DNA of 64,000 nt from a virus: IMG/VR virus record IMGVR_UViG_3300037067_022543. One strand, written 5' to 3'. Below, one piece after another: positions 1 through 61,274 of the stretch (its first letter is position 1; every line of letters starts with the position of its first letter). The translations under genes were made by a program, and so were the position numbers. Under the pieces are notes generated by a model. That model was not told the origin of the DNA. It made no database searches and saw only the letters and a program-made list of their open reading frames with translations.

Positions 1-1766
1 CTAACAATATCTATTGGCTTGTTGTTAAATTCTTCAATACCATATTTCTTAATAGAGTTTCTAATCAAAGAGCGAGTGTGATCTGTAAGAAACTTTATAT
101 AGTTTTCAACATTGAACCATTTGTTAGGATCATCTACGAAATTAATTCTATATGACACTGATAACTCAACATCAACAAGATCCTTAGTAGTTGCTGAAAT
201 CTTATCTGACACTTTGTTGTTTTTAACTCTCAAATATGCCGTTTTAATTAACCTATCATCATTTTTAGGGGTTCCAGTTGAAAGTTCAAGAATTTCCGGA
301 TTTTCGTCATATTCAAACAAAATAGTTTTAGGACCAACAACTACTTTTCTGTCGCCGCTATTGTTAACAACTTGAACAGCGTAACCCGTCCAAACTTTAA
401 CTGTAACAGCTCCGTCATATTTACTATTTATTGTTATAGTTCTTGGCTCAGTGAATTTTGTATTTCTACTCATTTCGTCAGCAGCAAAATCCTCTGCTCT
501 GACATTATCAGTACTATACATACTCATGCTTCTACTAAGTTTACGAACATCAACAACTCCTGATTCATTTAAACCAATTGCAGACAAGTCGTTGCCAATT
601 TTTTTATTGTAATCTTTAGCTTCTGAATTGCCAGGGTACAACAAATCAATAACTTTATCAGACAACACCCGTTTAACAATTACTTCTTTTCTTGGATCTG
701 GTAGAAACATTTTTGGACCTTGCACCAGATTGACTTCTCCGTTCTCCTTATTAAGAACATAACGGGCTTCGCCTTTTGGTATGGCTATTGCATACATAAT
801 AGTATCTTTACCATATCTAATAATAGCATGTTCAGCTCTTGGGTAATAAATTTTTTGGTCTTTTCCCGTAATGAACATTTCATCGCCTTCACTATATGAT
901 TTATCGCCATCTTTATCACCATCTTTATAATCTGCAAGAACCTTAATGTGTATTCCCATGTTATCATTAAGTTCTAATGCTTTAAATACTCGCTTGCCGT
1001 CCTTTTCAACAAAAGTTTCTGTTGGTTTTGGAAAAACAACTGATGGTCCACGAACATATCTCTTATCTCCGTTTTCGTCTAGCAACCAACAATATTCCAA
1101 TCGTTCAAGGGTAACAGCTTCGCGAACATATTCTTGACCGTTTTCACTCTTCAATATTTCCAGACCAGTTGGTGGGATATAAAAAGAAACTTCCGTTCCT
1201 TTAATTATAATCAATTGCCCCATTTTTAGTTCTTGCGGATTAATTGCTGTTTTGACAACATTAGTTCCGTCAGTCAATTTAATTACGGATGTTCCCCAAA
1301 ATTTTTTGGCTTGTTCTTCATTATAAACTCTAGCCACCAAATACTGGTTAGATCTTAATTGATGACCTTGCACAACTTCACCAATTTGTCTTGGGAAAAG
1401 AGCAAAAGTGCATGGTCCAGAAATGTTTATTTTTCTCCCCATATCAAGAGAAGGAGATTGTTGCTTGCCTTTTTGCGGACGAGTTTCGTGATTACCAGTA
1501 GGGGGATTGGTCAAAATAATGTATTCGCCTTCATTTGCAGAAGGGCATTGGCGAATAGCTTCTGGCTTAGTAACCTTAACGAACTTACCTTTTTCAGAAC
1601 TATAAACTACTGGAGTATCAGTATCTGCTAAACTTTGTTTACTTGGGCCTACAATACTAAACACATCTCCACTAGAATTGTCTTGAACCAAAGCATATTC
1701 GCCTTGAGCTACGATTAGATCTCCCCCGCGTTCCATACGATTATTAACTTCATAGTCTACTGCCAT
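1..1766 (-). CDS. Major vault protein (MVP)-like protein, N-terminal ~588 aa; C-terminus runs off the window start
   Basis: ATG at 1766-1764 preceded by AAAGGAGAAAAACT. Translation MAVDYEV...YALVQDNSSGDVFSIVGPSKQ and ...KVLADYKDGDKDGDKSYSEGDEMFITG...SYRINFVDDP aligns with MVP repeat segments ([46 protein letters not shown]). Not in the ORF track because the minus ORF is open to position 1. Confidence 0.8.
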   Translation of the reverse strand, partial: MAVDYEVNNRMERGGDLIVAQGEYALVQDNSSGDVFSIVGPSKQSLADTDTPVVYSSEKGKFVKVTKPEAIRQCPSANEGEYIILTNPPTGNHETRPQKGKQQSPSLDMGRKINISGPCTFALFPRQIGEVVQGHQLRSNQYLVARVYNEEQAKKFWGTSVIKLTDGTNVVKTAINPQELKMGQLIIIKGTEVSFYIPPTGLEILKSENGQEYVREAVTLERLEYCWLLDENGDKRYVRGPSVVFPKPTETFVEKDGKRVFKALELNDNMGIHIKVLADYKDGDKDGDKSYSEGDEMFITGKDQKIYYPRAEHAIIRYGKDTIMYAIAIPKGEARYVLNKENGEVNLVQGPKMFLPDPRKEVIVKRVLSDKVIDLLYPGNSEAKDYNKKIGNDLSAIGLNESGVVDVRKLSRSMSMYSTDNVRAEDFAADEMSRNTKFTEPRTITINSKYDGAVTVKVWTGYAVQVVNNSGDRKVVVGPKTILFEYDENPEILELSTGTPKNDDRLIKTAYLRVKNNKVSDKISATTKDLVDVELSVSYRINFVDDPNKWFNVENYIKFLTDHTRSLIRNSIKKYGIEEFNNKPIDIV

Positions 1767-1813
1767 AGTTTTTCTCCTTTGTTTTTAATCTTTGTTTTAT
1801 TTATACAATGAAA

Positions 1814-4995: not shown

Positions 4996-6102
4996 TTATA
5001 CAACAAAAATATCTTTAATAATATTTTTATTTCTTACAAGCCAATTATAAACATCTGTAACTGTATTTAAAACACTCTTTTTAGGTTTCCATCCACTTTC
5101 ATTCATTATTTTTGAATAATCTGTAACATAAAATGGGATATCTAATTCTCTTTCTTTTTCATCTTCTGATATATTTATTTTGTTATTAGTAACATTTTGA
5201 CATATTTGTGTTAACTCTTTTAATGAAACGCTATTTTCCATGCCACCTCCAACATTATAAACCTTACCATTATATTTTTTAATATTTGAAAGTTGAATTT
5301 TTAAAAGACTATATAAATCATCAATGTGCAAAACATCTCTGACTTGTTTGCCTTTGCCACCAAATCCTATATAACTCAATTTTCCACCAAAAAAGTGTTT
5401 AGCAACCCAAAAAGAAATTATTCCCTGATCATCTTTACCCATTTGCCACGGTCCTGCAATAACTCCACATCTATTGATAATCCCCATTATATCATATGTC
5501 TCTACATATTCCTGTATAATTATTTCAGAAGCTAATTTTGTTGCTCCGTACAAAGATCTCGTACCTTCAAGTGTAAATGATTCTGAAATGCCTTTTTCAT
5601 TTACTCCAACGATGTTCTGATTTTTAGATATTGAAAATCTATGAGGCAATTCATCAAAAGAAATCTTTGTTAATGGTTTTATAGGATAAACTCTGCTTGT
5701 GGAAATAAAAACAAAATCTGCTCCAGTTTGTCTTGCTGCTTCAATACAATTTATCGTTCCCATAAGATTGGTATTAATTATATATGCTGGAGATTCTTTA
5801 AGACCAGCAAGCACAGAAGGCTCTGCAGAACATTCTATGAATACATTTGGTTTTTGAGGGCAAAATTTTATTGCTTGAAATATATCATCTTTATTTCTAA
5901 CATCTCCATATACAAATATAACACCAGCTTGTTTTAGCCTATTGATGTTAATTTCGGAACCTCTTCTTTTAAGATTATCTAATGAAATCACACAATGGCA
6001 AGGGTTATCCTTCTTAAACTTTATTGCAAGGTTTGAGCCAACAAACCCAGCCCCTCCTGTAATAAAAATTGTTTTCAATATTAAATCCTTATATTTTTGC
6101 AA
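4996..6102 (-). CDS. NAD-dependent epimerase/dehydratase (extended SDR, sugar-nucleotide epimerase-like)
   Basis: Rossmann motif [12 protein letters not shown] at the N-terminus; catalytic YGATKLASE (YxxxK). Confidence 0.8.
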
Positions 6103-7147
6103 AGATCTTGTAAAATGCTACTCATGTTATGTTGATATTCCCAATTAGGATAATGATTTTTAAACTTAGAAACATCGGAAATATACCAAATATGGTCTCC
6201 ACTTCTGTTTTGATCAACATATTCTATATTAGCTTTTTTACCAACCATTTCTTCAATTTTAAATATTGCTTCCAGCATTGAAATATTTGAATATCTTGAC
6301 CCACCAATATTATAAACTTCTCCTTTTCTTGGGTTTTGATGAAAACTATCAAAAGCATTTATTAAATCAGAAGCGTGAATATTATCTCTGACTTGCTTAC
6401 CTTTATATCCAAAAATTTTGTATGGTTTTTCTGACTTTATGCACTTAACTAAAAATGCCAAAAAACCGTGCAGTTGTGCAGCAGAATGGCTAGAACCCGT
6501 CAAACAACCCCCTCTAAACACTACTGTTTTTAAGTTAAAATATCTTCCATATTCTTGGCACATAATATCGGCAGCGACCTTGCTTGCACCAAAAACACTA
6601 TGCTTTGATTGATCTATTGACATTGTTTCATCTATCCCATTGAAATATGGGTGGTCTTTTTTAATTTCAAATCTAGTTTCCATTTCTTCAAATGGCAAAA
6701 GGTTAGGAGTATCACCATATACTTTATTTGTTGAAGTAAATATAAAATTAGTTTCTGGAGCATAATTTCTTAAATTTTCTAACATAACCAAAGTACCAAA
6801 AGCGTTTACCCCAAAATCAGTAAAAGGTTCGCGAGCAGCCCAATCATGGGACGGTTGTGCAGCACAATGAACTATAAGCTCCAATTTTTTCCCATATTTC
6901 TTAAAAATGTCACTTATTTTTTCTTTATTTTGTATATTTATATTATAATGTTCATAATTATTAAATTGCTTAATAAGAGATTTTATATTCCAAGAAATAT
7001 TGCCGTCTTTGCCAAAGAAATATTTTCTAAAATTATTATCTATACCTATAACTTTTTTATTTTTTTTAGCATAAAACCTAACTGCTTCAGATCCTATTAA
7101 TCCTCCTGAACCAGTTACTAATATTGTGTCTTTTGTTGAAATAGATA
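6081..7147 (-). CDS. NAD-dependent epimerase/dehydratase (second copy); start codon non-canonical or unclear
   Basis: The track ORF 6081..6884 holds YGASKVAAD (YxxxK). The Rossmann motif [15 protein letters not shown] lies in frame upstream (to about 7147) with no ATG, GTG or TTG; only ATA or ATT overlapping the upstream TAA stop. Confidence 0.65.
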
Positions 7148-8724: not shown

Positions 8725-9045
8725 ATGAAAATTACCATGTCTAAACGTCAGTGGGAAGAATTAATTAATAGAGAAGAAACTTTAAACAAAAAAGATCAAT
8801 CAAAAGAAACAACTTGGAACAAAAAAGCTCAATCAGAAAATGCAAAAGATGTAATTTGTGATTCTGGTATAAAAGGATGGCAAGATAAATTACAAAATGT
8901 TTATCAATCTTTAGAAGAACTTATTTCTTATGATAATATATATGGAATTTGCAAAAGATTAGGATATGAAGATCCTAAAAAATGTTGGGAAGAAAACCCC
9001 ACTATACAGGGGTCTATTAATCCATCTGATTTAAAAAGGGTTTGA
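8725..9045 (+). CDS. hypothetical protein with conserved N-terminal leader (MKITMSKRQWEEL)
   Basis: SD AAGGAGATAAAAC before the ATG; first of three tandem plus-strand paralogs sharing the N-terminus. Confidence 0.6.
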   Translation: MKITMSKRQWEELINREETLNKKDQSKETTWNKKAQSENAKDVICDSGIKGWQDKLQNVYQSLEELISYDNIYGICKRLGYEDPKKCWEENPTIQGSINPSDLKRV

Positions 9046-9054: not shown

Positions 9055-9381
9055 ATGAAAATTACATTATCTAAACAGCAATGGGAGTTCATCGGAAATA
9101 AAACAGGTTGGATTAAATCTGATAAAAAACCAATAAAAGATATAAATCAAAAAGCCCAACTAATCAAAAAAACCTATTTTTATCACATTAATTTAAATGA
9201 ACGTGGACAATTTTATGCCGATGTAAGAGATGAAAAAGGTAATACCATTTTTGAAATTAAGGGTTTTGAAATATTTGAAGACGGTTTCATGACAAATGTT
9301 AAAGACATGAACGGTTTGAAAAATTATTTAGTAAACCTAAGCTTAATTAGCAAACAAGACGAGTTGAAATATATAGGCTAA
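9055..9381 (+). CDS. hypothetical protein with conserved N-terminal leader (MKITLSKQQWEFIGNKTGWIK)
   Basis: SD AAGGAAAAC; the N-terminal 20 aa are shared with 9383, 61768 and 63338 family members. Confidence 0.6.
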   Translation: MKITLSKQQWEFIGNKTGWIKSDKKPIKDINQKAQLIKKTYFYHINLNERGQFYADVRDEKGNTIFEIKGFEIFEDGFMTNVKDMNGLKNYLVNLSLISKQDELKYIG

Positions 9382-9382: not shown

Positions 9383-9727
9383 ATGAAAATTACATTATCT
9401 AAACAACAGTGGGAAATACTTGGTAATAAAAAACATATCACATCTCAAAATCTTGAAACAGTCAAAACTCTACCAAAACTTGATGACAGAGAAACAACTA
9501 GAGCAATAAGAGATGCTATTATTGCAGAAGAAGGAGCTATTAAGCAATATGAAGTTGTAGCAGATTCTACAAATAACAAAAAAATTTCTAAAGTTCTTCA
9601 AGATATAGCAGATGAAGAAAGAGTGCACGTTTTTGAATTACAAGAATTATTAAATTTTCTTTTGTCAGATGAAAAAAAGTTTGAACAAGATGGCAAAAAA
9701 GAAATTGCTGACTTAATGAAAAAATAA
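9383..9727 (+). CDS. leader-family protein with ferritin-like / rubrerythrin-like (EncFtn-like) C-terminal domain
   Basis: MKITLSKQQWEILGNK leader; AIIAEEGAIKQYE...ADEERVHVFEL resembles a diiron ExxH motif pair. Confidence 0.55.
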   Translation: MKITLSKQQWEILGNKKHITSQNLETVKTLPKLDDRETTRAIRDAIIAEEGAIKQYEVVADSTNNKKISKVLQDIADEERVHVFELQELLNFLLSDEKKFEQDGKKEIADLMKK

Positions 9728-10220: not shown

Positions 10221-11249
10221 TTATACATCATCTTTAGGAAAGTTAATTTTTATTTTCACAAAAGATATTGACAATCTATTCCAAGTATATGTTACTCCAA
10301 TTCCATCATTTAGTTCAACTATTGATGGATAAGAAAAACTACCTTCTCCTTCTTGTATATGTACCTGTTTTTTCCAAGTTTTACCGTTATCATTTGACGA
10401 AATAAGAGATAATGGAGTCCTATCAGCCCAATTACCAGAAACAGGGTTATATACCAAAAATAATAAACCTCTGGTTTTAAGAATATCTATTCCACTATTA
10501 TTATTGGGCAATTCTATGGGGTAAGCTTGACTCCATGTTTCTCCATAATCAATAGAATCGCTTCTAAATATGAATCCTGCCGTACTACGCAACAACATGT
10601 GTACATTTCCGTCTGTAGACTCCCATAAGGTCGGCTGAATTACACCACCATATTTTCCATTTTTTAAACCATATCTTTTCCTATCAAAATCTATAAGTTT
10701 AGATTTTTTCCATGTTTTCCCTTCATTCTTACTAATATCAACAAATGATTTCCACACAACATCCTTAGGTTCAAACATATTACTATGAATGGTTTGTTCT
10801 ACTGAAGACGGGGCTACCCAATTACCATTTGACAAAACGATAGGTTTACTTCTAACTGGACCTCTGTCAAATTGGTCGTGAATGTGGTCAAAATCAATTT
10901 CATTTAAATTAATTAGTTCTTTTGGTTGACTCCATTTTTCGTTCTCAAAAACCATATAATATGTCACCCAAGCATCTATGGAAGTTCCCATTTTAAAAAA
11001 AAGATATGTTTTGTTTTTAAATGTAAACAAAACTGGGTTCCAATGAGCTACATCATCAACTTTAGCTATAATAGCAGGTTTACTCCAAAACTTTTCATTA
11101 GGAAATAGACACGACATCCATATTGCTGTATCCGGATTAGATTCTCTACTACCAGCAAACCAAGCAACAAATATTCTACCGTCTTTCAATTGAGTTATTG
11201 TTGACGCATGACATTGGGGAAAATATTTTTGTGGTTCAAATATCAGCAT
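10221..11249 (-). CDS. BNR/Asp-box repeat glycosyl hydrolase (sialidase-like)
   Basis: Three Asp-boxes: SKNEGKTW, SIDYGETW, SNDNGKTW. Confidence 0.7.
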   Translation of the reverse strand: MLIFEPQKYFPQCHASTITQLKDGRIFVAWFAGSRESNPDTAIWMSCLFPNEKFWSKPAIIAKVDDVAHWNPVLFTFKNKTYLFFKMGTSIDAWVTYYMVFENEKWSQPKELINLNEIDFDHIHDQFDRGPVRSKPIVLSNGNWVAPSSVEQTIHSNMFEPKDVVWKSFVDISKNEGKTWKKSKLIDFDRKRYGLKNGKYGGVIQPTLWESTDGNVHMLLRSTAGFIFRSDSIDYGETWSQAYPIELPNNNSGIDILKTRGLLFLVYNPVSGNWADRTPLSLISSNDNGKTWKKQVHIQEGEGSFSYPSIVELNDGIGVTYTWNRLSISFVKIKINFPKDDV

Positions 11250-27325: not shown

Positions 27326-27775
27326 CTACATATTTTTTCTGCAATAAAAAAACGCCACAATTCCTCCAATAACAAAACATATAAAAAATATTAAAAATGG
27401 AAGATTATCATTCTGTTTTTTAATTAACTTTGCGTTTTCAATTGTTGGGCCAATAGTAATATTATTATCTATATTAGTTTTTAAAATATGGGAATGTGCC
27501 GAATGATACAAAAATATTGGGACAACATTATAAAATTGTTTATACTGCGATATTCTGAAATTATAATACATAGGATTGTTTATAATTGGTTTTCTTACCA
27601 TCCTATATGGTTTTACCATTTTAGAAGGGTTTGGTCTATTAACATGTATAGAACGATTAATATGGGTTGAATGATTAATATGTACGGAATGACTAATATG
27701 TACCGGCCTAGCAAAACAAATAGTTCCCCAAATAAACATAAATATAATTAATGTCTGTGTATTTATTGTTTTCAT
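27326..27775 (-). CDS. secreted/membrane His-rich repeat protein
   Basis: Signal peptide, repeats VHISHSVHINHSTHINRSIHVNR, C-terminal TM helix. Confidence 0.5.
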   Translation of the reverse strand: MKTINTQTLIIFMFIWGTICFARPVHISHSVHINHSTHINRSIHVNRPNPSKMVKPYRMVRKPIINNPMYYNFRISQYKQFYNVVPIFLYHSAHSHILKTNIDNNITIGPTIENAKLIKKQNDNLPFLIFFICFVIGGIVAFFYCRKNM

Positions 27776-28875
27776 AAATATTTTTTATAAAAGTCTCCTC
27801 CTATTTTACCTATTGATCTAATAGCACTTGAAGAAATGTAATCGTATTCTCTACCACAAGGAATAAAAACAACCGAAATATTACCACCATATTTATCCTC
27901 AATAAATCTCAACTGATTAATCTCATAGTTGAAATCGTAACCATTTCTTAAGCCACGAATTAGTGTAACATTTGCATAGGCTTCTATTGATTTGATATAA
28001 TCTGACAAAAAACCAGAAAATGAGTCAACTTCATGAAAAGGAATTACAGATCTAATTTTATCTATATTATCATCTATATTGCCTTCTTTAAGGTTGTCTT
28101 TTTCTGGATTGCGACCAACAGCAATAATTACCTTATCAAAAAGCTTTTCTGCTTTTTCTAAAATATTACTATGCCCAATATGAAAAGGATTAAATGATCC
28201 AGCATAAATCCCAATATTTGGCACATAATTTTCTACATGTTTTATCAATAAAGAAATATTATGACGGTTTTTAAAGCACTTATCATGATTTTTCATTGAG
28301 TTTAAAAATTTAATTCTGCCTTCTTTATACTTATTATAATTATAAAATTGATATTCTTTTAAAATAAGATTATCATCTCTCAATAGTTCGTTAACATTAC
28401 CATAAATAAATGTCCATAAATCTGCCTCATTAAACCATTGAGATAATTTTGTTGTTCCTTCTTGATTTCCATACTGAGTTTCAAGAATCATTTTTTTAAT
28501 AATATTGGTATTAGATTTGTTGGCTTTCCCTGAAACAGAGCTTACAGCAACAAACCAATCTGATGAAAGTTCTTCATTATTGCTCACCCTATCTGAAGTT
28601 GGTCTTTTAGGATCATAAACCACATCATGGAAAAGAGCTACAAGTTGTAAAATTTCTCTTTCTCTGGAAGTATGATGAAATGAATCAATAAGATTAAACA
28701 AAAAACTTATGTGTTTAATATCGTGATAATACCTGTGTTTTTGTTCATAAGCATTAAGAGCATCATTAACAACTTCATTAATTCTTCCGCCAAAAAGATT
28801 ATTGGCAATTGAATTATGAAATAAAAGTTCTTCAATTGATTTTCTAATTGTTCTTTTGTCTAATAAACTTCCCAT
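27772..28875 (-). CDS. HD-domain protein fused to a phosphopantetheine adenylyltransferase (CoaD)-like nucleotidyltransferase
   Basis: N-terminal H...HD motifs (HDIKHISF, ALFHDVVYDP); C-terminal GIYAGSFNPFHIGH, LIRGLRNGYDFNYE and ISSSAIR, colinear with CoaD motifs. Confidence 0.7.
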   Translation of the reverse strand: MGSLLDKRTIRKSIEELLFHNSIANNLFGGRINEVVNDALNAYEQKHRYYHDIKHISFLFNLIDSFHHTSREREILQLVALFHDVVYDPKRPTSDRVSNNEELSSDWFVAVSSVSGKANKSNTNIIKKMILETQYGNQEGTTKLSQWFNEADLWTFIYGNVNELLRDDNLILKEYQFYNYNKYKEGRIKFLNSMKNHDKCFKNRHNISLLIKHVENYVPNIGIYAGSFNPFHIGHSNILEKAEKLFDKVIIAVGRNPEKDNLKEGNIDDNIDKIRSVIPFHEVDSFSGFLSDYIKSIEAYANVTLIRGLRNGYDFNYEINQLRFIEDKYGGNISVVFIPCGREYDYISSSAIRSIGKIGGDFYKKYL

Positions 28876-28901
28876 ATAATCTCCTCAAAACCATAGTCAT
28901 T

Positions 28902-29660
28902 TTAAATCCATTGTTCAATATAATTTCTGTCTTGTGTAAAAATTGGAATTGTGCGATCTTCAATAATATCTGTTCTGAAAACATCGTGATCGCTAATGTT
29001 TTTTTTAGCCTGTTTTTTATATAAGCAAATGCCGCGTTTCTTCCATATGTCTATATTATTCCAATTTATGCCTTTTTCTTTAAAAAGTTTTTCCTGAACT
29101 TGATCGTTATTTAATCCAGACATTTCCTTATGAGAAAAGTTTGCTTGTCCAAGTCCCTGAATACTATTTCTGGTACAATCATTTTGTCTCCAAATAAAAT
29201 AGTTGCAAACTTCTTCTTTAGGCAATACAAAGGCTCTGGAATCAAATAGTCCACAATCACTAATTTCTGGTGATTTTAAATTTAGAAATATAAAACATTT
29301 ATTAAAGCATATAGTAGCAATGGATGCAGATACACTAACAATTTTTTGAAGATTCTTTTCAAACCAAGCTTGCGTGTAAATATTTTCGTAATCTGTTGCC
29401 AAAATGCTGATTTCGTCAGATTGAATATAAGCTAACTTTGAACCTTGAATTTCTTCAAGCAAACCCCTGCCTGTATCAACCATAGCCATTGCAAAATCTT
29501 CATCGAAAGGCTTTTGAAATCCACTCCTTTGTGTAAAACTATGAAACGCCTTTCCATCAACTCTAATAATTAAAGGCATTCTACGAGTAAGATAATGAAG
29601 ATTAACTTCCTCGTACTGCTTCATACGATTTCCTAAAGAATCTGTTTCTATTGTTTTCAT
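28902..29660 (-). CDS. Thg1-like protein (tRNA-His guanylyltransferase / 3'-5' polymerase family)
   Basis: LIIRVDGKAFHSF, IQSDEISIL and FDSRAFVLP match Thg1/TLP catalytic motifs. Confidence 0.8.
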   Translation of the reverse strand: MKTIETDSLGNRMKQYEEVNLHYLTRRMPLIIRVDGKAFHSFTQRSGFQKPFDEDFAMAMVDTGRGLLEEIQGSKLAYIQSDEISILATDYENIYTQAWFEKNLQKIVSVSASIATICFNKCFIFLNLKSPEISDCGLFDSRAFVLPKEEVCNYFIWRQNDCTRNSIQGLGQANFSHKEMSGLNNDQVQEKLFKEKGINWNNIDIWKKRGICLYKKQAKKNISDHDVFRTDIIEDRTIPIFTQDRNYIEQWI

Positions 29661-29668
29661 TATTTTTC

Positions 29669-30514
29669 CTAATTATTTATAACAAAAATTTCTTCATTTT
29701 CATCAAATTTGCCATCATCCCACCAACGAACATCTGGAAAACACCAATTCAATTTCATTTCGTCATATATCATTTTGTTAGTTTCTGTGTTCTGAATATA
29801 TAACCTTATAGGCTTTATTTTCATAATGTCAACATATCTCGTCCTCAAATGTATAAAAGTATTCCAACTATGAACACTAATTCCAATGCCATCAATGTAG
29901 CCGTCAACCATCTTGACAAAGTTTTTAGTTAGAAATATTCCATTCGTTTGAAGATAAATTGGAGTATCCTTTGCAGCTTTCCGTCTCAAACAGCAAAGTA
30001 TAGCAACTAATTTAGGATAAAGCAAAGGCTCTCCACCAGAAACAATAATAGTTCTATATTTTTTTAAGTCAACTTCCTTCCCATCAAGATTAAAAATTTT
30101 TCCATTAAAATCTTGAAGTGGAATCCACTTTTTACTATATTCTTCCAACTTATTAATGCAATACTCGCACTTTAGATTGCAAGCCAAAGTAACCTTAATT
30201 CGGCATTTTGTTTTTTTAACAAAATTAAATTTGTTTTCTGTTTCCTTTTTCCGACCAGTATATAATTCCCAACAAATTGGACAACACTCATCTTTCGTAT
30301 GAAACTTACCTTGACTCCCGCTCAAATGATAATCCTTGCCAATTTTACCGCATAATGTTTTGCTATGTACTAACAAAATTGGTTCTATTGGTGAAATAGG
30401 AATATGCACCCATTTATCGTCAGAATAACAAAGTTCCATATATGGCATTATTTTTCTCCCATCAATCATAACATAAATCATAATTATTTTATGCACCAAT
30501 ATTGTATCCCACAT
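29669..30514 (-). CDS. radical SAM domain protein
   Basis: CNLKCEYC (CxxxCxxC) and SGGEPLL. Confidence 0.7.
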   Translation of the reverse strand: MWDTILVHKIIMIYVMIDGRKIMPYMELCYSDDKWVHIPISPIEPILLVHSKTLCGKIGKDYHLSGSQGKFHTKDECCPICWELYTGRKKETENKFNFVKKTKCRIKVTLACNLKCEYCINKLEEYSKKWIPLQDFNGKIFNLDGKEVDLKKYRTIIVSGGEPLLYPKLVAILCCLRRKAAKDTPIYLQTNGIFLTKNFVKMVDGYIDGIGISVHSWNTFIHLRTRYVDIMKIKPIRLYIQNTETNKMIYDEMKLNWCFPDVRWWDDGKFDENEEIFVINN

Positions 30515-31916: not shown

Positions 31917-32783
31917 TTATAACGAATTATTATGCCTTACCCTATAATAAGAAACATATTTCTTTAACTTTTCAATACTTCTTTTAGAAAGATTAGAACG
32001 ATCTATCCCATATTTTTCAACTAATGCTTCAATCAAATCATTTGCAATTTCTTCATTAGATTTATTCCAGTCTACCTTAGACCAATCATATTTTCTGTTT
32101 GGACTATACTGCAATGTTTCAGGAGCGTATAAAGTTCTATATCTAGAAACCAATGATCTACTAATATTATATTCTTCTGCAATTTCTCTATTAGACTTAC
32201 TCCAATCAACTTGCGGTCCTAAAACAGACCAATCATATTGAGTGGGAATTGAATGAACTGTATTTGGGGCAAAAGTCTTCCTATTTCTTGGAACTGAACC
32301 AATAGAAACACCATTTTCTATGGCAATTTCTTCATTAGGCTTATTCCAGTCCACCTTAGACCAATCTATATTTTTTGGTCCAGAATTAAGTTTTGTATCA
32401 GGGGCTAATTTTGATCTCATTCCAGATATATGATCATAGCTCAAACCAATTTCTTGTGCAATTTCTTCATTAGATTTATTCCAGTCCACCTTAGACCAAT
32501 CTGGTTTTACTATTGTATTTGGGGCTAGTTTTCTCCTCATAAAACTAACATATCCCATGGGGGCTCCTATTTCTTGAGATATTTCTTTGTTTGTTTTATT
32601 CCAATCAACCTTGGAAAAATTATATTTCGGTTGCATTGTTTCTGGAGCGTATCTCTTTCTCATTCTAGAGACATAAACAGAAGACGCCCCTGATTCTTTT
32701 GCAATTTCTGATGTTGATTTGTTCCAATCAACCTTGGAAAAATCATATTCAGAAGCTATTTTATACATTGTGTACCAGTTCAT
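31917..32783 (-). CDS. tandem HTH-like repeat protein (MNWYTMYK...; repeats DWSKVDWNKSNEEIAQEIG..S.....MR.K.AP.T)
   Basis: About seven ~35-aa repeats; paralog of 34102..35052. Confidence 0.55.
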   Translation of the reverse strand: MNWYTMYKIASEYDFSKVDWNKSTSEIAKESGASSVYVSRMRKRYAPETMQPKYNFSKVDWNKTNKEISQEIGAPMGYVSFMRRKLAPNTIVKPDWSKVDWNKSNEEIAQEIGLSYDHISGMRSKLAPDTKLNSGPKNIDWSKVDWNKPNEEIAIENGVSIGSVPRNRKTFAPNTVHSIPTQYDWSVLGPQVDWSKSNREIAEEYNISRSLVSRYRTLYAPETLQYSPNRKYDWSKVDWNKSNEEIANDLIEALVEKYGIDRSNLSKRSIEKLKKYVSYYRVRHNNSL

Positions 32784-34101: not shown

Positions 34102-35052
34102 TTAAAGTTGAAAATTATTGTCTAATTGAGAAGATTTATACCAGTTGAAAGAAGAAAACAATGATTTTAACGGTTCGGTCTCTTGTGGATTTGGTTTGTG
34201 AAGATAATGTCTAACTTTTCCAACATATGCTGTTAATTTTTCAAGATATCTTTCTGGAAGTTTAGACGGATCAAAATCTGGTTCTTTTTTTAACTCTTCA
34301 ATTAAAAATTCTGCTATTTGTCTATCTTTTTTATTCCAATCTACCAATTCCCATTTTAATTTTCTAGGTTGTTTTCGTAATGTCCATGGAGCATATTTTT
34401 TTCTATATCTAGAAATATATGCTGGATCAACATCTTTTTCTTCTGCAATATCTGTTGTTCTTCTAATCCCCCATGCAATTTGTGGACCTTCAGTTGTCCA
34501 GTCTGTTTCCTTCTCATAACGCTTAATAGTATCATTAGCCCAAAACGCCCTCATAGCGTGAACATAATGTATATTTCTATCGGTTTCTATTGAAATTTCC
34601 TTATCGGATTTTACTTTCCATTCCACTTTTGCCCAGTCAACTTTAGCTATTGTATCTGGAGCACATCTCCTCCTCATGCGAGAAACACTAGTGGGATGAA
34701 GTCCTGTTTCTTGAACAATTTGCTTTGTTGATTTGTTCCAATCAATATCGGAACATTTTAAATATTCTTTTATTGTATCTAAAGCAAAACGTCTTCTCAT
34801 TTTTCCAACTTGGTTTTCTCCCTTCCCAATTTCTTGAGATATAACTTTGTTAGACTTGCTCCAGTCTATTTTTGACCAATCAAAATACTTAGTTTTTGTT
34901 TCAGGAGCACATATTACTCTTAAATGATAAATATAACTCATACTTAGTCCAGTTTCTTGCGAAATTTCAGCAGTGGATTTGCTCCAATCTATATCTGAAC
35001 AATCATATTTTGGTTTGCTGTATGTAGTTTTATATAATGTATACCAATTCAT
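34102..35052 (-). CDS. tandem HTH-like repeat protein (MNWYTLYK..., paralog of 31917..32783)
   Basis: Same repeat unit (IDWSKSNKVISQEIG...). Confidence 0.55.
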   Translation of the reverse strand: MNWYTLYKTTYSKPKYDCSDIDWSKSTAEISQETGLSMSYIYHLRVICAPETKTKYFDWSKIDWSKSNKVISQEIGKGENQVGKMRRRFALDTIKEYLKCSDIDWNKSTKQIVQETGLHPTSVSRMRRRCAPDTIAKVDWAKVEWKVKSDKEISIETDRNIHYVHAMRAFWANDTIKRYEKETDWTTEGPQIAWGIRRTTDIAEEKDVDPAYISRYRKKYAPWTLRKQPRKLKWELVDWNKKDRQIAEFLIEELKKEPDFDPSKLPERYLEKLTAYVGKVRHYLHKPNPQETEPLKSLFSSFNWYKSSQLDNNFQL

Positions 35053-35094: not shown

Positions 35095-35171
35095 TGGTGA
35101 TCTCGGAGGAATTCGAATCCCCAATTTCTTCCACGTCAAGGAAGCACATTAACCAATTATGTTACGAGACC
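35095..35171 (-). tRNA. tRNA-Val (anticodon GAC), CCA encoded
   Basis: Manual fold: acceptor GGTCTCG/CGAGATC, anticodon arm CTTCC-TTGACGT-GGAAG, T-arm GGGGATTCGAATTCCTC. Confidence 0.65.
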
Positions 35172-36214
35172 AAACTGGTGCTCCTGGCAGGAATTAAACC
35201 CACTTCTACGGGATGAGAACCAGTCGTTTTATTCGGTAAACTATAGGAGCCAAAATTCTTAATCCTATCTAAAAAACTGTCCAATTTGTTTTCTGGATAT
35301 AAATCTGACGGTATTATTTCTATAAATTTTAAATTGTTGTCTTTTACTATTTTGCGTTTGAGTTCTACTACTTTATCATATTCTTCCACCTGCCCTATTA
35401 AACCGAAATATTCTACCAATATATTATAATATGGTAAATAAAAATCACAATCCATATTGCTATTGGGATATTTTTTATTTCTTTCGTGATTTATTTTATT
35501 TATAAAAAACCAATCGTCTACTATTTTTTCAGATATGCTGTCTGCCATATGATTGTCTTGACATTTCAATCTAGTTTTTTGAAATTTACTTTTGTTTGGT
35601 TTTAATCCGCAAAAACTAACGGCTTTATTCCATGTTCCAAAAAATCTTATGGTAGCAGACAATAATCTTATTAAACAATCTCTTTTTTGAGGAGTTCTAT
35701 TAATTTTTTGAGATAATTGTATTATTTTATTAATTACTTCGTCTTTGGTATATGGAGAAAATCCAAACTGATATATTTTTCCGCATTTTGCAGAACAACA
35801 CTTGATTCTTTTTCTCGATGGATGGAATTTTTTTCCACAAATAACGCAGTTCATTTCTTCAAGCATTATTTTATTTTGTGTTTTAAGATATTTTCTAATT
35901 GAATTTCTAGTTTTTTCTGATATTTCTTTTCTTTTTTCATCACTAAAAATTCTATTTTTATTATTTACTACTGCTGCACAAGAATTGCAACAATAAAATT
36001 TCTTTGTTTTACTTCTTTTATAATCACAATTTCCAACCACAATATCTTTTCCACAGTTATAACATTTTAGATTTTTAGATTTTGTTTTAAATTGTATTCT
36101 GCATTCTTTGCTACAAAAAAACTTCCATTTTTGTTTATTCGACCAATTATAATTCCTAGCTGGCATACCAAAATGATGGTGGCAGAAAGAACACTCGACA
36201 TCAATATCTACCAT
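35162..36214 (-). CDS. N-terminal zinc-ribbon repeats + C-terminal DUF559/Vsr-like endonuclease-fold protein
   Basis: Multiple CxxC pairs; DCDFYLPYYNILVEYFG matches the DUF559 core. The ORF as called reads through tRNA-like 35176..35251, so the true 3' end is uncertain. Confidence 0.5.
   Translation of the reverse strand: MVDIDVECSFCHHHFGMPARNYNWSNKQKWKFFCSKECRIQFKTKSKNLKCYNCGKDIVVGNCDYKRSKTKKFYCCNSCAAVVNNKNRIFSDEKRKEISEKTRNSIRKYLKTQNKIMLEEMNCVICGKKFHPSRKRIKCCSAKCGKIYQFGFSPYTKDEVINKIIQLSQKINRTPQKRDCLIRLLSATIRFFGTWNKAVSFCGLKPNKSKFQKTRLKCQDNHMADSISEKIVDDWFFINKINHERNKKYPNSNMDCDFYLPYYNILVEYFGLIGQVEEYDKVVELKRKIVKDNNLKFIEIIPSDLYPENKLDSFLDRIKNFGSYSLPNKTTGSHPVEVGLIPARSTSLVS
35176..35251 (-). tRNA. 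tRNA-like element (possible Glu, anticodon CTC) with acceptor and anticodon-stem mismatches and a non-canonical T-loop
   Basis: Manual fold GCTCCTA...CAGGAGC A CCA; T-loop TTTAATT lacks C56. Confidence 0.3.
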
Positions 36215-36312
36215 AAGAATAACTCCTTTTATATAATTATTCTTTAATATGTCGGCAATCTCCTACTTGAACCTTCAATTATTTGTATTATTTTTTAGGA
36301 CGGTTCAAAAAA

Positions 36313-36390
36313 TGGTGTCGCCATCGGGACTCGAACCCGAACTTTTCAGGATGAAAACCTGATGTGTTAGCCAGTTACACCATGGCGACA
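36313..36390 (-). tRNA. tRNA-Glu (anticodon TTC), CCA encoded
   Basis: Acceptor TGTCGCC/GGCGACA, anticodon arm TCAGG-TTTTCAT-CCTGA, T-arm GGGTTCGAGTCCC. Confidence 0.7.
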
Positions 36391-36395
36391 TAAGT

Positions 36396-36487
36396 TGGTC
36401 AGAGGGGTGGGATTTGAACCCACGATTACCTTGCGGTTTTCCTCCTGCGCCCAAGGCAGGCGTTCTACCAAGCTGAACTACCCTCTG
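36396..36487 (-). tRNA. tRNA-Pro-like (anticodon TGG, G37) with a 20-nt variable region containing a GNRA-capped hairpin (ACC-GCAA-GGT)
   Basis: Perfect acceptor CAGAGGG/CCCTCTG, Pro-type D-loop AGCTTGGTA, anticodon arm CCTGC-CTTGGGC-GCAGG, T-arm GTGGGTTCAAATCCCAC; variable region AGGAAAACCGCAAGGTAATC. Confidence 0.55.
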
Positions 36488-36495
36488 TACAAAAT

Positions 36496-36572
36496 TGGCA
36501 CTCCTGACAGGACTTGAACCTGCACAATCCCACGTTCGTAGCGTAGTGCCCTTCCAATTAGGCCACAGGAGC
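36496..36572 (-). tRNA. tRNA-Arg (anticodon ACG), CCA encoded
   Basis: Acceptor GCTCCTG/CAGGAGT, anticodon loop CTACGAA, T-arm GCAGGTTCAAGTCCTGT. Confidence 0.7.
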
Positions 36573-36606
36573 ATTATACATTAAATTTTCAAATATCAAT
36601 AAAAAA

Positions 36607-36686
36607 TGGTGGGCATGGTGGGATTTGAACCCACGACCTTCTGTGTATCAGACAGACGCTGCTAAAACCAGCTGAGCTACATGCCC
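36607..36686 (-). tRNA. tRNA-Ile (anticodon GAT), CCA encoded
   Basis: Acceptor GGGCATG/CATGCCC, anticodon arm TCTGT-CTGATAC-ACAGA, T-arm GTGGGTTCAAATCCCAC. Confidence 0.7.
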
Positions 36687-36729
36687 ATAATTATGCATTA
36701 TTAAGTTTTCAAATAACAAAACTAAAAAT

Positions 36730-36804
36730 GGTCCGGACCATCCAGAATCGAACTGGAGCCTTCAAGTTCACAGCATGACGGGCTACCACTACCCCATAGT
36801 CGGC
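36730..36804 (-). tRNA. tRNA-His-like (anticodon GTG) with genomically encoded G-1; one C.C mismatch in the acceptor stem
   Basis: Anticodon arm TCATG-CTGTGAA-CTTGA, T-arm TCCAGTTCGATTCTGGA, G immediately 5' of acceptor CCGACTA; the 3' side is TGGTCCG-G-ACCA. Confidence 0.45.
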
Positions 36805-36813
36805 ATCAAAAAG

Positions 36814-36900
36814 TCGGGAAGGTCGGATTTGAACCGACAATGCATTATTTCAGCTCCTGCTTCCAAAGCAGGTCGAGTACCAGTTATCTTCTACTTCCCG
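36814..36900 (-). tRNA. degenerate tRNA-like element (anticodon TGG, A37; irregular D-arm; 17-nt variable region), no CCA
   Basis: Acceptor CGGGAAG/CTTCCCG and T-arm GTCGGTTCAAATCCGAC are intact; the anticodon stem CCTGC/GCAGG is identical to that of tRNA-Pro-like 36396..36487. Confidence 0.35.
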
Positions 36901-36937
36901 TTTTATTCTTATTTTTCAAAGATCACTCATCAAAAAG

Positions 36938-37011
36938 TCGAGCAGGACAGCTTCTCTCCAGCGACCTTCACATCACAAACGTGCCGTTCTACTGAACTGA
37001 ACTACTGCTCG
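36938..37011 (-). tRNA. degenerate tRNA-like element (pseudo-tRNA; anticodon TGT region; T-arm destroyed)
   Basis: Acceptor CGAGCAG/CTGCTCG and D-stem GTTC/GAAC are present; T-loop replaced by AGAGAAG; shares the 3' trailer ACTTTTTGATG with 36814..36900. Confidence 0.3.
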
Positions 37012-40905: not shown

Positions 40906-41463
40906 CTATTCAAATTTTTTAATATCTTTGAAAGTGTATGGTTCTAAATAATCAGGATTATCAATTAAGATTTGCTTGCCATAATTGTTTTTAGGATTAA
41001 TAACTAACGGAGATTTAATAATTATAACTCCTTCTGAAAAGACTCCTTTAGCTATATTTCCCTTATCTACTTTAACAATAGTAAGAAAAACAAGATCATC
41101 TGAAGATGATGCATTTAATGCCATTTTATCTTCTTCGCTTGGAGTTGGCTTATAATCCTTAAAAATAAAAAAGGGATCAATACACATAAAGCTAAGTTTT
41201 GTTTCTCCACAAAAGTTCATTATAATAAAAGGGTTACTTTTATCATTAAAAACAAAAGCAAATTCCTTATTGTCTTTAAAACCAGGTAAACCGTCTGGAA
41301 AGTAAAACATCTTTTCTGAAAATCCCCTATTAGAAATAAGATTTTTGTAAGGAATTTTCTTCTTCTGATTTTTACCAAGATATCCCAACATATTTAACTG
41401 AACTAAACTCATTTTAATTCTCCTTGTATTAAAGAAACTTTTATTTGAACCATTTATAACCAA
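40906..41463 (-). CDS. fliW: FliW homolog (flagellar assembly factor / CsrA antagonist family, DUF180)
   Basis: FYFPDGLPGFKDNKEFAFVF, FMCIDPFFIFKDYKPTPSEEDKMALN and IIKSPLVINPKNNYGKQILID are colinear with the FliW motifs (F.P.GLPGF, ID.PF.IF.DY.P...EED, AP.IINL.N..GKQ). The true start may be the internal MSLVQLNML. Confidence 0.7.
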   Translation of the reverse strand: MVINGSNKSFFNTRRIKMSLVQLNMLGYLGKNQKKKIPYKNLISNRGFSEKMFYFPDGLPGFKDNKEFAFVFNDKSNPFIIMNFCGETKLSFMCIDPFFIFKDYKPTPSEEDKMALNASSSDDLVFLTIVKVDKGNIAKGVFSEGVIIIKSPLVINPKNNYGKQILIDNPDYLEPYTFKDIKKFE

Positions 41464-42585: not shown

Positions 42586-43146
42586 TTAATTATATTCAAC
42601 CATCCAATCATCGGCTAACATATCTTTAATGTCACAAAAAAGTTCATGATCTTCTATATAATTTTCACTTTCCCTTACCAACAGCAGTTCGCCGTCTTCA
42701 GATCTGGAAACAGCAATCATATCCATGCCTTCTCCTCTTGTACGCCAACCTTTTCTACAAGCTCTTTTACCATTAAGAATTTCACGCAATGGAAACTGAC
42801 GACAAACAACCCAACCTTCTAGTTCACAATGCGAATCACGTGAATCACTTAGACCTAATTTATTAATTTCCCAAGGATGTCTTATTCCATTTAAAAAATC
42901 ATCATCTATCCAAATTTCAACAGAACTAATTTGTTCTATATCTGATTTATATTTCCTACCATCAAAATATTCAACTCCTATAACTACTGTTTCTTTTCCT
43001 GTTAAATTGTCATGAACTTTTTCACCAACAAAGAAAGGAAGATTTATGGTTTTAGATGGTGGTAGATTAATTTTAGTTTCTATAACAATATTATCCCCAA
43101 CATTATAATTTATAGTTTTATTCATAGCAATGATATTATTTCCCAT
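42586..43146 (-). CDS. hypothetical protein (186 aa)
   Basis: Minus-strand ORF. Confidence 0.45.
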   Translation of the reverse strand: MGNNIIAMNKTINYNVGDNIVIETKINLPPSKTINLPFFVGEKVHDNLTGKETVVIGVEYFDGRKYKSDIEQISSVEIWIDDDFLNGIRHPWEINKLGLSDSRDSHCELEGWVVCRQFPLREILNGKRACRKGWRTRGEGMDMIAVSRSEDGELLLVRESENYIEDHELFCDIKDMLADDWMVEYN

Positions 43147-58060: not shown

Positions 58061-59983
58061 TTATTTCTTTTTATCATCAACCATTTCAAAATCAGCATCA
58101 ATTACATCACCTTGTGCATCTTTTTTGTCTTTAATGTTATCAGATGTTTGTTCAGATGTTTTTTCTTTAGAATTCTTTGCTTTTTCATATAATTCAGAAG
58201 AAACAGAATGCATAGATTCATTAAGTGATTCCATTTTTTCCTTAATTGTCTTAACATCTTCAGATTTAATGGCAGATTTCAATTCTTCTATTTTCTTTTC
58301 AACATCTATTTTTTTATCAGAAGAAATCTTTTCAGAATTATCTTTCAGCATTTTCTCTGTTTGATAAACAACATTTTCTGCTATGTTCTTTGTTTCGATT
58401 TTTTCCCTTGAATCCTTATCTTCTTGAGAATGTTCTTCTGCATCTTTAACCATTTCTTTAATTTCTTTTTCAGTCAATCCACTAGATGCTGTTATGGTTA
58501 TCTTTTGTTCCTTATTTGTTCCCAAATCTTTTGCAGAAACATGTAAAATACCATTAGCATCTATATCAAATGCCACTTCTATTTGAGGTGTTCCACGCAT
58601 AGCAGGAGGAATACCATCAAGATGAAAACGCCCTAATGATTTATTACCTTTTGCCATTTGTCTTTCGCCTTGCAAAACATGTATTTCTACGGCAGGTTGG
58701 TTGTCAGCTGCAGTACTAAATATTTCTGACTTGCGTGTTGGTATGGTGGTATTTCTCTCAATCAATTTTGTATAAACTCCACCCAATGTTTCTATCCCTA
58801 AAGAGAGGGGAGTAACATCTAACAGCAACACATCTTTTACATCTCCCTTAATAATACCTCCTTGTATAGAAGCCCCAACTGCAACTACTTCATCTGGATT
58901 AACGCCTTTATGAGGTTCTTTTCCAAATGTCGCTTGAACAACATCTTGAACTTTAGGCATTCTGGTCATTCCTCCAACCATAACAACTTCATTAATATCT
59001 TTATAATCCAAACTAGAATCTTTCACGCATTTTTTGACTGGTGAAAGAGTTCTGCTAATTAAATCATCAACTAGTTGTTCTAGTTTAGATCTGGACAAGT
59101 TAATATTTAAATGTTTTGGTCCAGAAGCATCAGCAGTAATAAAAGGAAGATTAATATCAGTTTGTTGAGATGAAGATAACTCACATTTAGCTTTTTCAGC
59201 AGCTTCCTTCAATCTTTGCAAAGCCATACTATCTTTTGACAAATCAATGCCGTTATCTTTTTTGAATTCAGAAGTCAACCATTGGATAATAAGTTGATCA
59301 AAATCATCTCCACCAAGATGGGTGTCACCATTAGTAGATTTAACTTCAAAAACTCCATCTCCTATATCCAAAATAGAAATATCAAAAGTTCCACCACCAA
59401 GATCATAAACAGCAATCTTTTCATCCTTCTTTTTGTCCATACCATAGGCTAAAGAAGCAGCAGTTGGCTCATTAATTATTCTTAACACTTCAAGACCAGC
59501 AATCTTTCCAGCATCCTTTGTGGCTTGCCTCTGACTATCATTGAAATATGCTGGCACAGTTATAATTGCTTGTGTAACACTTTCCCCCAAATAAGATTCT
59601 GCATCTGTTTTCAACTTTTGCAAAATCATAGATGATATTTCAGGAGGAGAATAAGTCTTGCCATCTACTTCAACATGGGCATCACCATTTTTTGCTTTTA
59701 CTATTTTATATGGTACTAATGATATTTCGTGAGCTACTTCATCATATTTTCTTCCCATAAACCTTTTAATTGAATAAACAGTGTTTTTGGGGTTAGTCAC
59801 TGATTGCCTTTTAGCTGATTGCCCAACAAGCCTTTCTCCGCTTTTAGTGAATGCTACTATTGAAGGAGTTGTTCTACTGCCTTCTGCATTTGGAATAACA
59901 ACAGGTTGCCCGCCTTCCATAACAGCCATACAGCTATTTGTAGTTCCCAAGTCTATACCTATAACCTTATTCGATTTAGCCAT
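58061..59983 (-). CDS. dnaK: Hsp70 chaperone DnaK (bacterial type)
   Basis: [33 protein letters not shown]; full-length 640 aa; TATAAT and AAGGAA upstream. Confidence 0.9.
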
Positions 59984-60622: not shown

Positions 60623-60700
60623 TGGTAGGTGCGGAGGGATTTGAACCCCCAACCCCCGAGATATAAGCTCGGTGCTCTAACCAGTTGAAGCTACGCACCC
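60623..60700 (-). tRNA. tRNA-Ile (anticodon TAT, AUA-reading), CCA encoded
   Basis: Acceptor GGGTGCG/CGCACCT, anticodon arm CCGAG-CTTATAT-CTCGG, T-arm GGGGGTTCAAATCCCTC. Confidence 0.6.
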
Positions 60701-60712
60701 ATATTTCTCAAA

Positions 60713-60787: not shown

Positions 60788-60793
60788 ATAAAG

Positions 60794-60865: not shown

Positions 60866-60870
60866 ATAAA

Positions 60871-61239: not shown

Positions 61240-61274
61240 ATTATTTCTCCTTTTTAATTATTATTTTATAAAGT

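Follow-up and report, generated by a model that had tools for sequence, protein, structure and literature searches.

The first gene of a 64,000-nucleotide stretch of viral DNA (IMG/VR record IMGVR_UViG_3300037067_022543; hereafter the window, meaning the whole stretch that was analysed) encodes what is almost certainly a major vault protein (MVP) homologue. This gene occupies positions 1..1766 of the minus strand and is cut by the window edge, and its identification draws on the open frame, Pfam models, sequence matches in the PDB, AlphaFold and Foldseek comparisons, and more than 6000 homologues. We consider it likely that the gene belongs to a prokaryote- and phage-type MVP family whose members self-assemble into a cage that is separate from the virion and stands in the infected cell, most likely a cell infected by a huge phage. 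That an MVP of this kind might form a shell or compartment had been proposed in an earlier annotation made from the DNA letters alone (the sequence-only reading), and a compartment of this sort is still our best guess at what the protein would build.

The reading frame opens with an ATG at 1766-1764 and continues without a stop for 588 codons until window position 1, where the edge interrupts it ahead of any stop codon. Since relatives are roughly 800-850 amino acids long, about 230 C-terminal residues of this MVP must lie beyond the window, and the visible codons represent about 72% of an expected protein of ~820 amino acids. The part beyond the edge would comprise the remaining shoulder, the cap helix and the C-terminal tail; the sequence-only reading spoke of a full-length homologue, which a gene cut by the window edge does not show. 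Searches for identical copies of the proteins of two neighbouring window genes, and for an exact 48-base stretch of the DNA in IMG/VR and in JGI metagenome contigs, returned nothing, and the source contig is thus absent from these collections. A Shine-Dalgarno sequence, AAGGAG (1774..1779, minus strand), is placed 7 nt 5' of the start codon. The sequence-only reading had described a minus-strand gene with MVP-like peptides at the start of the window, preceded by a canonical Shine-Dalgarno sequence, and both descriptions hold: its three quoted peptides were located at residues 24-44, 275-301 and 538-547 of the translation, and AAGGAG was read directly at 1779-1774. Scans of the AT-rich window DNA for promoters and terminators were uninformative, with 34 promoter sites returned against 26 +/- 6 expected in shuffled sequence of the same AT-richness.

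Comparison with curated protein families separates this protein clearly from its nearest structural cousins. Both MVP_shoulder (E-value 2.1e-13, 50.8 bits against a cut-off of 25) and Vault_3 (E 1.7e-8, 34.9 bits against 28.8) exceed their curated Pfam cut-offs, whereas Band_7 stays below its own (20.3 bits versus 23.6, E 6e-4) and an HflK model falls far short (16 bits versus 159), an outcome that bears out the MVP assignment made from the peptides. A phmmer search of PDB chains returned major vault proteins only (E 1e-9), and the paired segments are collinear, with query residues 231-389 corresponding to MVP 295-440 (R6-R8) and residues 454-581 to MVP 458-592 (R9 onward). A profile built from 49 family members aligned with rat MVP at E 9e-32, running from repeat 9 through the shoulder and along the whole cap helix to residue 817. 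No family for the window protein was found in PHROGs or NCBIfam, and no PADLOC model was matched either by this protein or by P0001, a full-length relative that is 57% identical to it.

Structure prediction supported the same assignment. The AlphaFold2 model of the window fragment has a mean predicted local distance difference test score (pLDDT) of 66.5 and is weak at residues 190-266 and 398-447. In a Foldseek search of the PDB this model gave 16 matches at E <= 0.001, every one of them MVP (best E 9e-20), including crystal structures of murine MVP R1-R7 that contain no SPFH domain (E 2e-9 to 8e-9). The model of P0001, calculated from 136 diverse sequences, has a pLDDT of 85.2 and a predicted template modelling (TM) score of 0.64; it matched vault structures at E 6e-34 to 8e-28 with TM-scores up to 0.52, and murine R1-R7 at E 5e-16 with a target-normalised TM-score of 0.55. 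From its N-terminus the P0001 model consists of beta repeats to approximately residue 355, an R8-like helix pair, a disordered loop at 397-425, an R9-like repeat, the shoulder at 492-620 and then a single helix at 622-751. A cap helix of ~130 residues is found in all full-length relatives and aligns with the rat cap helix. Structure-based identity to mammalian MVP is 14-16% for the window model and 14-20% over both models. Because the top Foldseek matches are exclusively MVP and include the repeat-only R1-R7 structures, the fold recovered is one of vault repeats plus shoulder rather than of an SPFH domain alone, which was the outcome that the sequence-only reading had named as fatal to its proposal.

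These comparisons bear directly on whether the protein could instead be a generic SPFH or band-7 scaffold of the HflK/C, flotillin, stomatin or prohibitin type, forming a ring or cage attached to the membrane. The shoulder domain is itself SPFH-like, which fits such a scaffold, as do the sub-threshold Band_7 match, the very weak HflK match, the appearance of SPFH cages in the fold searches (only E 1e-3 against the window model, and 1e-7 or worse against that of P0001) and the presence in some viral loci of a separate flotillin-like gene beside MVP. Such a scaffold does not account for the approximately 510 residues of vault repeats that precede the shoulder, which match R1-R7 at E 5e-9 and 5e-16 and carry a Vault_3 match above its cut-off, nor for MVP matches that surpass every SPFH match by 13 to 26 orders of magnitude. 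The window sequence also has no hydrophobic N-terminus that could serve as an anchor. The vault-repeat array and the MVP-only top matches thus largely refute a generic SPFH protein, and we regard this alternative as highly improbable.

Within the window the domains of the predicted protein can be placed in order, all on the minus strand. An N-terminal array of small beta-sheet vault repeats takes up residues 1 to ~512 (231..1766), as delineated by the secondary structure of the models, the Foldseek matches to R1-R7 and pairing by hidden Markov model (HMM). Inside an R8-like domain lies a variable linker of low confidence (residues 398-447; 426..575), for which pLDDT is below 50 in both models and whose columns are poorly conserved in both family alignments. 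It is followed by an R9-like repeat (residues 454-510; 237..407), the site of the Vault_3 match (E 1.7e-8), which aligns with human MVP 458-519 and which contains a loop of sequence S496-T-G-T-P-K501 (STGTPK; 264..281), identified from the translation and its alignment to human MVP. The first two thirds of the SPFH-like shoulder (residues 516-587; 6..221) complete the visible part and cover MVP_shoulder profile positions 2-79 of 118; in relatives this domain is complete, with E about 1e-27. By our reading of the strand pattern in the models and of the rat repeats paired by HMM (profile residues 215-347, for example, pair with rat MVP 276-409), the window MVP would have about seven vault-repeat domains, including an R8-like one with two helices, where rat MVP has nine.

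The family to which this protein belongs is large. A word-indexed search of metagenomes recovered 6261 proteins (90%-identity clusters) at E <= 1e-5 among 8000 scored candidates, and several of these relatives carry the JGI annotation 'major vault protein'. When representatives at 50% identity were searched exhaustively, 746 clusters matched at E <= 1e-30, 1200 at <= 1e-10 and 1617 at <= 1e-3. With two peptide patterns alone, MVP was found on at least 246 IMG/VR viral contigs, many of them 100-500 kb long, and at no fewer than 392 loci in GTDB genomes of bacterial and archaeal species from many phyla. Some of the latter are plainly chromosomal, including copies on a 3.9-Mb Vulcanimicrobiota contig and on a 1.6-Mb scaffold, a copy beside LepA, PFOR and HemN-like genes on an Eremiobacterota contig, and one beside CheB/CheR and ferritin genes on a Riflebacteria contig. 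The sequence-only reading had called the gene unusual on the premise that MVP is essentially eukaryotic; the bacterial, archaeal and viral loci counted here, the 746 or more clusters and earlier papers show that this premise is out of date. Several MVP contigs that were assigned to bacterial bins (candidate phyla radiation and other metagenome-assembled genomes), among them L097 and the 328,883-bp contig L090 of a Magasanikiibacteriota bin, may be mis-binned huge phages. In BFVD the sole near full-length viral match was an 802-aa Harvfovirus protein (E 3e-14), and all other matches were confined to SPFH. This protein (A0A3G5A4K1, Harvfovirus sp.) is annotated merely as 'prohibitin domain-containing' and aligns over ~870 alignment columns with the full-length phage-type MVP model; judging from that alignment, it may be an unrecognised vault-like protein of a eukaryotic giant virus.

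Conservation and phylogeny within the family were considered together. Viral and genome copies are 45-55% identical to the window protein; mean identity is 45% among viral copies, 58% among genome copies and 45% between the two sets, and 24 columns are invariant in an alignment of 136 sequences. Neighbour-joining gave a rough tree, rooted at its midpoint, in which a single clade unites 62 of the 71 genome copies while viral copies occupy several deeper clades, and the window MVP lies in a clade dominated by viruses. Since its internal branches are very short and the sample favours window-like sequences, we take this tree only as a hint that phage copies may be more diverse than bacterial ones. 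A few genome-derived MVPs, for example that of L097, are placed inside virus-dominated clades, and other copies are clearly chromosomal. The same data address eukaryotic contamination or an assembly chimera, which might be suspected given that MVP is best known from eukaryotes. The gene shares strand and AT-richness with its neighbours and has a close Shine-Dalgarno sequence, and thousands of phage and bacterial proteins share 50-57% identity with its product, as against 14-16% for mammalian MVP. Kinship, Shine-Dalgarno sequence, strand and composition together refute contamination, to which we assign next to no probability.

Judging by the surroundings of the gene, the window most probably belongs to a huge (jumbo) phage genome. 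The window has approximately 30% GC with a steadily negative GC skew, and 92 of its 120 called open reading frames (ORFs) lie on the minus strand; many small ORFs match no family. It encodes 13 (ARAGORN) to 15 (Rfam) tRNAs in two clusters, and no rRNA. Family scans, which covered 50 of the 120 predicted window proteins, identified replication and repair genes (UvrD and ResIII helicases, a 5'-3' exonuclease), homing endonucleases of HNH/DUF4379 type, several DNA methyltransferases, and the nucleotide and RNA genes IMPDH, Thg1, an NMNAT-like protein and a radical-SAM protein, together with a full Hsp70, two sugar epimerases, a BNR sialidase-like protein and FliW. PHROG matches were obtained among the homing endonucleases and helicases as well as for Thg1 and Hsp70. 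Of the reference phages, the MVP matched only the uncultured huge phages LR756500, LR756501 and LR756503 (462-735 kb, 50% identity), and a megablast comparison of the first 20 kb of the window with reference phages gave no match. The viral or metagenomic contigs that hold the best-matching MVP relatives reach 373-482 kb; genes found on them encode DNA polymerase B, dUTPase, a prohead protease of T4 type (Peptidase_S77), a sigma factor and ribosomal protein L12. Homologues of window genes flank viral MVP loci (Thg1 in 11, metallophosphatase in 5, exonuclease in 3, UvrD in 2). It is the combination of strand bias, tRNA clusters, homing endonucleases, viral-contig relatives and genes common to viral MVP loci that leads us to a huge-phage origin, and the prokaryotic, phage-like context described by the sequence-only reading is sustained by the AT-rich composition, one-strand coding, tRNAs without rRNA and these common flanking genes.

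An alternative origin, in which the window derives from a bacterial chromosome (for instance of an AT-rich bacterium with a small genome) and its MVP is a cellular protein, would be in keeping with the existence of cellular MVP homologues, with the lack of a capsid, portal or terminase gene among the 50 scanned window proteins, and with Hsp70, IMPDH, sugar epimerases and FliW, which are typically cellular. It is harder to reconcile with the strong bias to one strand, the many tiny ORFs that match no family, tRNA clusters unaccompanied by rRNA, and the number of homing endonucleases and DNA methyltransferases. Homologues of window genes were found in only two bacterial MVP flanks, through the widely conserved IMPDH and Hsp70, compared with the repeated matches in viral flanks, and both the virus-dominated clade and the exclusive reference matches to huge phages of 462-735 kb point away from a chromosome. 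We therefore judge a chromosomal origin quite unlikely.

If the gene is that of a phage, its product could in principle be a component of the phage particle, whether internal to the head, decorating it or associated with the tail. Huge phages have many uncharacterised virion proteins, a role in 'virion structure' was left open for other phage MVPs (bioRxiv 10.1101/2023.11.10.566534), and in one relative a prohead protease gene lies ~8 kb away. The genes around MVP do not resemble a virion module. In a Pfam survey of 150 genes lying no more than two places from MVP in viral loci, 39 families were matched, of which the commonest were Band_7 (4), RNA ligase (3), NADAR (2) and Thg1 (2), and capsid, portal, tail and baseplate families were absent among the 25 most frequent that were listed. 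Both the flank in the window and those of relatives hold replication, RNA-repair and nucleotide genes, so that the window MVP sits among RNA-repair, nucleotide and auxiliary genes. Moreover, a ~50%-identical protein is encoded in bacterial chromosomes beside LepA, PFOR, chemotaxis and ferritin genes with no phage genes around it. On the strength of the 25 listed neighbour families and the chromosomal copies we reject a virion-module gene; a structural role in the particle is, in our estimate, quite unlikely.

No conserved partner emerged from the neighbourhood of MVP. ORFs were called in 165 MVP loci and the resulting 3847 proteins clustered by BLAST; MVP was present in 156 of these loci, and no other family occurred in more than 19 of the 165. 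The neighbours that recur (metallophosphatases, Thg1, RNA ligase, a kinase, NAD synthase) are commonplace in huge phages. Vault RNA was not found in the window, where Rfam at its gathering threshold gives only 15 tRNAs, and no analogue of PARP4 or TEP1 was found, in that PARP, TROVE, VIT/VWA and DUF4062 domains are absent from the 50 scanned window proteins. Given the lack of a conserved neighbour, of vault RNA and of PARP4/TEP1-type domains, the MVP appears to be partner-free and to lie outside the virion module. Two local associations were seen in relatives. Eight viral loci (cluster 13; for example L057 8012-9565) encode a flotillin-like SPFH protein of 517 aa that has a hydrophobic segment at its N-terminus, and in six of the eight its gene lies two or three genes upstream of MVP. 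A gene for a 63-aa histone-like Hc1 protein lies directly upstream of MVP on a phage contig of 482 kb (L003 9778-9969, L004 6327-6518). A 65-aa lysine-rich ORF upstream of MVP in the window was considered as a counterpart and rejected, since it has no Pfam Hc1 match and showed no similarity to the relative's protein by BLASTP.

Together, these data suggest a model in which copies of the phage MVP would pack side by side through their repeats, as in eukaryotic MVP, while their C-terminal helices would bundle to yield, in the infected cell's cytoplasm, a vault-like cage that is closed, hollow and soluble. This cage would form without the eukaryotic partners PARP4, TEP1 and vault RNA, and with about seven repeats rather than nine it would probably be shorter than the animal vault. 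More speculatively, a loop of the form S-x-G-x-P-K between neighbouring subunits could bind a phosphate-bearing adenine nucleotide (NAD+ or ADP-ribose), in which case the cage might buffer or sequester such molecules during infection; the confidence we place in the cage does not extend to this last step. Several points weigh against the model as a whole. The cage is argued from homology and strong sequence conservation for proteins that are known here as genes alone, and the evidence for phage origin is indirect, with no capsid, portal or terminase gene among the 50 scanned proteins of the 64-kb window. The C-terminal ~230 residues of the window MVP, including the cap helix that would drive assembly, fall outside the window, and within it residues 190-266 are poorly modelled in spite of being highly conserved. 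The MVP gene occurs in no cultured phage of INPHARED, and there is consequently no experimental handle yet. As for the nucleotide-binding step, most residues of the human pocket are not conserved (R507, P508, H509, R511, D521, F522 and W545), and immediately past the loop basic residues give way to an acidic one.

The loop itself is among the few invariant motifs of the family. In the window protein S496-K501 aligns with the 'keyhole loop' of human MVP, S501-A-G-R-P-K506, and across 136 family members the S and K of S-x-G-x-P-K are invariant, with G and P conserved in at least 90%. Human MVP binds NAD+, ADP and ADP-ribose between neighbouring shoulder domains (10.64898/2026.05.01.722283; PMC12280208, section 9), and pocket residues given in the latter source include R504, K506, R507, P508, H509, R511, L517, D521, F522 and W545. 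These findings could be extended to a proposal that the cage acts as a nucleotide sponge or reservoir, holding NAD+, ADP-ribose or related signals and thereby countering host defences that deplete NAD+ or signal through ADP-ribose. The proposal gains some appeal from the human binding data and the invariant core of the loop, from the NAD-related genes near phage MVP (NAD synthase, NUDIX, NADAR twice and an NMNAT-like gene), and from the presence in the window of an NMNAT-like gene and a weak Tad2-like match. It is set back by the divergence of most other pocket residues and the acidic, not basic, character of those after the loop; the NAD-related neighbours are few (one or two each among 150 genes) and of a kind that huge phages commonly carry in any case, neither a PADLOC model nor an anti-defence family was matched, and the affinity reported for the human protein (PMC12280208) does not go beyond tens of micromolar. 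Structural reasons alone may account for the conservation of the loop. With the pocket residues different and an acidic residue following the loop, we rate nucleotide binding as of low probability, and a sponge function as improbable.

The sequence-only reading had also suggested that an MVP shell might be relevant to a family of small proteins with a common leader. Five window proteins do share an N-terminal leader of ~20 residues, MKITLSKQQWEFIGNKTGWIK, and nothing else, their bodies being unrelated. Three of the genes lie on the plus strand (8725-9045, 9055-9381 and 9383-9727) and two on the minus strand (61768-62007, and 63338 to beyond 64000, where it runs off the window end). A common leader on unrelated bodies resembles the cargo tags of other protein compartments, and the shell could on that basis be imagined to enclose these proteins with the leader as its loading tag. 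No support was found for the link to MVP: the genes are 7-62 kb from the MVP gene and show no linkage to it, the leader motif occurs in none of 166 other MVP loci (2.96 Mb, searched by regular expression), it was not found in IMG/VR as a degenerate DNA pattern, and the longest leader-tagged protein has no match in reference phages by tblastn. MVP is widespread and the leader seemingly lineage-specific, and we consider a role as vault cargo very unlikely. Internal proteins of phage T4 carry a capsid-targeting sequence by which they are packed into the head. By analogy, the leader could be a capsid-targeting sequence of the T4 style, a simpler reading than that of a vault cargo tag and one in keeping with the prohead protease of T4 type that a relative encodes.

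Several other features of the window merit description. The tRNA clusters lie at 35095-37011 and 60623-62926 on the minus strand, with extra calls made only by Rfam at 35179-35250 and 36938-37011, and hold two unusually long calls for tRNA-Pro(TGG) (88 and 92 nt) as well as a tRNA-Ile with the anticodon TAT. Adjoining a tRNA cluster, two paralogues that are 43% identical and carry helix-turn-helix or sigma-region-4-like motifs (31917-32783 and 34102-35052, both minus strand) flank a plus-strand gene. At 27772-30514 (minus strand) three adjoining genes encode the NMNAT-like cytidylyltransferase, which is fused to a phosphohydrolase-like N-terminal part, the tRNA-His guanylyltransferase Thg1 and the radical-SAM protein. 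A full-length Hsp70/DnaK is encoded at 58061-59983 (minus strand; Pfam HSP70 E 3e-273), and both its gene and the MVP gene have a GC content above that of their surroundings. Two overlapping paralogous genes for NAD-dependent sugar epimerases/dehydratases and the BNR sialidase-like protein occupy 4996-6884 and 10221-11249 (minus strand), and suggest phage-encoded sugar modification or glycan cleavage. The 186-aa protein at 42586-43146 (minus strand) has in its C-terminal 60 residues a weak match to Tad2, an anti-defence protein against Thoeris (E 2e-4, 22.1 bits under a cut-off of 25, with no PADLOC match). The FliW homologue lies at 40906-41463 (minus strand; Pfam FliW E 5.5e-25). Bacterial FliW binds flagellin and the regulator CsrA, and a phage-encoded FliW might accordingly interfere with CsrA control in the host.

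Vault-like proteins outside eukaryotes have a published history into which this gene fits. Bacterial MVP homologues have been described since 2013 (Daly 2013, PMC3762200; bioRxiv 10.1101/872010), two phage MVPs were reported in 2023 as the 'first viral MVPs' (bioRxiv 10.1101/2023.11.10.566534), and vault-like proteins of Borgs were reported in 2024 (bioRxiv 10.1101/2024.11.05.622173). The two phages of the 2023 report, Caudoviricetes sp. ctOa11 and ct2Ri15, resemble the window in encoding an MVP; they are uncultured tailed phages, and their MVPs are ~811 aa long, closest to bacterial MVPs, predicted to consist of repeats, shoulder and cap helix, and unaccompanied by a TEP1 or PARP4 homologue (10.1101/2023.11.10.566534). 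They are human-gut phages related to phages of Firmicutes, whereas the window is AT-rich and tRNA-rich with relatives on contigs of 100-500 kb; this comparison is made by description, as their records were not among the matches in the phage collection searched. The bacterial MVPs of Saprospira, Microscilla, Corallococcus, Plesiocystis and others belong to the same family, being ~48-54% identical to the window protein and sharing length, domain order and the weak Band_7 signal in the shoulder with its family, and differ from the window gene in being chromosomal genes of mostly gliding or filamentous bacteria.

Similarities to more distant systems are more qualified. Eukaryotic MVP (rat 4V60, human 9BW5) shares with the phage family an R1-like start, a series of repeats, a helical R8-like domain that contains a disordered loop, R9, an SPFH-like shoulder and a long cap helix in the same order, and retains the S-x-G-x-P-K loop. 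It differs in its low structure-based identity (14-20%), in having nine repeats where the phage protein probably has seven, and in most residues of the NAD+ pocket. The eukaryotic vault moreover has PARP4, TEP1 and vault RNA, none of which was found in the window scans, and the animal vault is a 78-mer of two 39-mer halves, while the window MVP is known from its gene alone. Borg elements of Methanoperedens resemble the window in carrying MVP-like genes on very large prokaryotic extrachromosomal or virus-like elements, and multimer predictions of their vault-like proteins are said to form barrel segments (10.1101/2024.11.05.622173). Borgs differ in having an archaeal host and in being another kind of element, and are likened to the window by description. 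The Hc1 gene upstream of MVP in one huge-phage relative echoes the histone neighbourhood reported for Borgs; the 65-aa ORF of the window is not Hc1-like. Finally, the SPFH cages (HflK/C, flotillin, prohibitin, stomatin and QmcA) have the shoulder fold and a closed SPFH ring capped by a helical barrel in common with vaults, and differ in being membrane-anchored, in lacking the vault repeat array and in matching at E 1e-3 to 1e-7 as opposed to 1e-20 to 1e-34.

In summary, the window gene is one more copy, cut by an edge, of a family already present in preprints, and by itself adds little that is new. Points that have drawn less notice are the high frequency of MVP in huge phages, the greater diversity of phage than of bacterial copies in the rough tree, the lack of a fixed neighbour, and the place of the loop that in human vaults binds NAD+ among the few invariant motifs of the family; our literature search found no paper describing MVP as a common gene of huge phages. 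A broader and far less secure proposal is that huge phages build vault-like cages as a compartment or sponge, for example to hold molecules of the NAD+/ADP-ribose type and blunt NAD-based immunity or to enclose specific phage proteins, and that the phage lineage is of an age and diversity to have been a source of the bacterial and, conceivably, the eukaryotic vault; we think this improbable. Vault function has stood as an open question since 1986. In huge phages and bacteria, a vault that is strongly conserved and partner-free would offer much simpler ground for working out what such a cage does. Should the compartment or sponge reading prove true, these phages would offer a simple system for testing the long-mysterious function of the vault.

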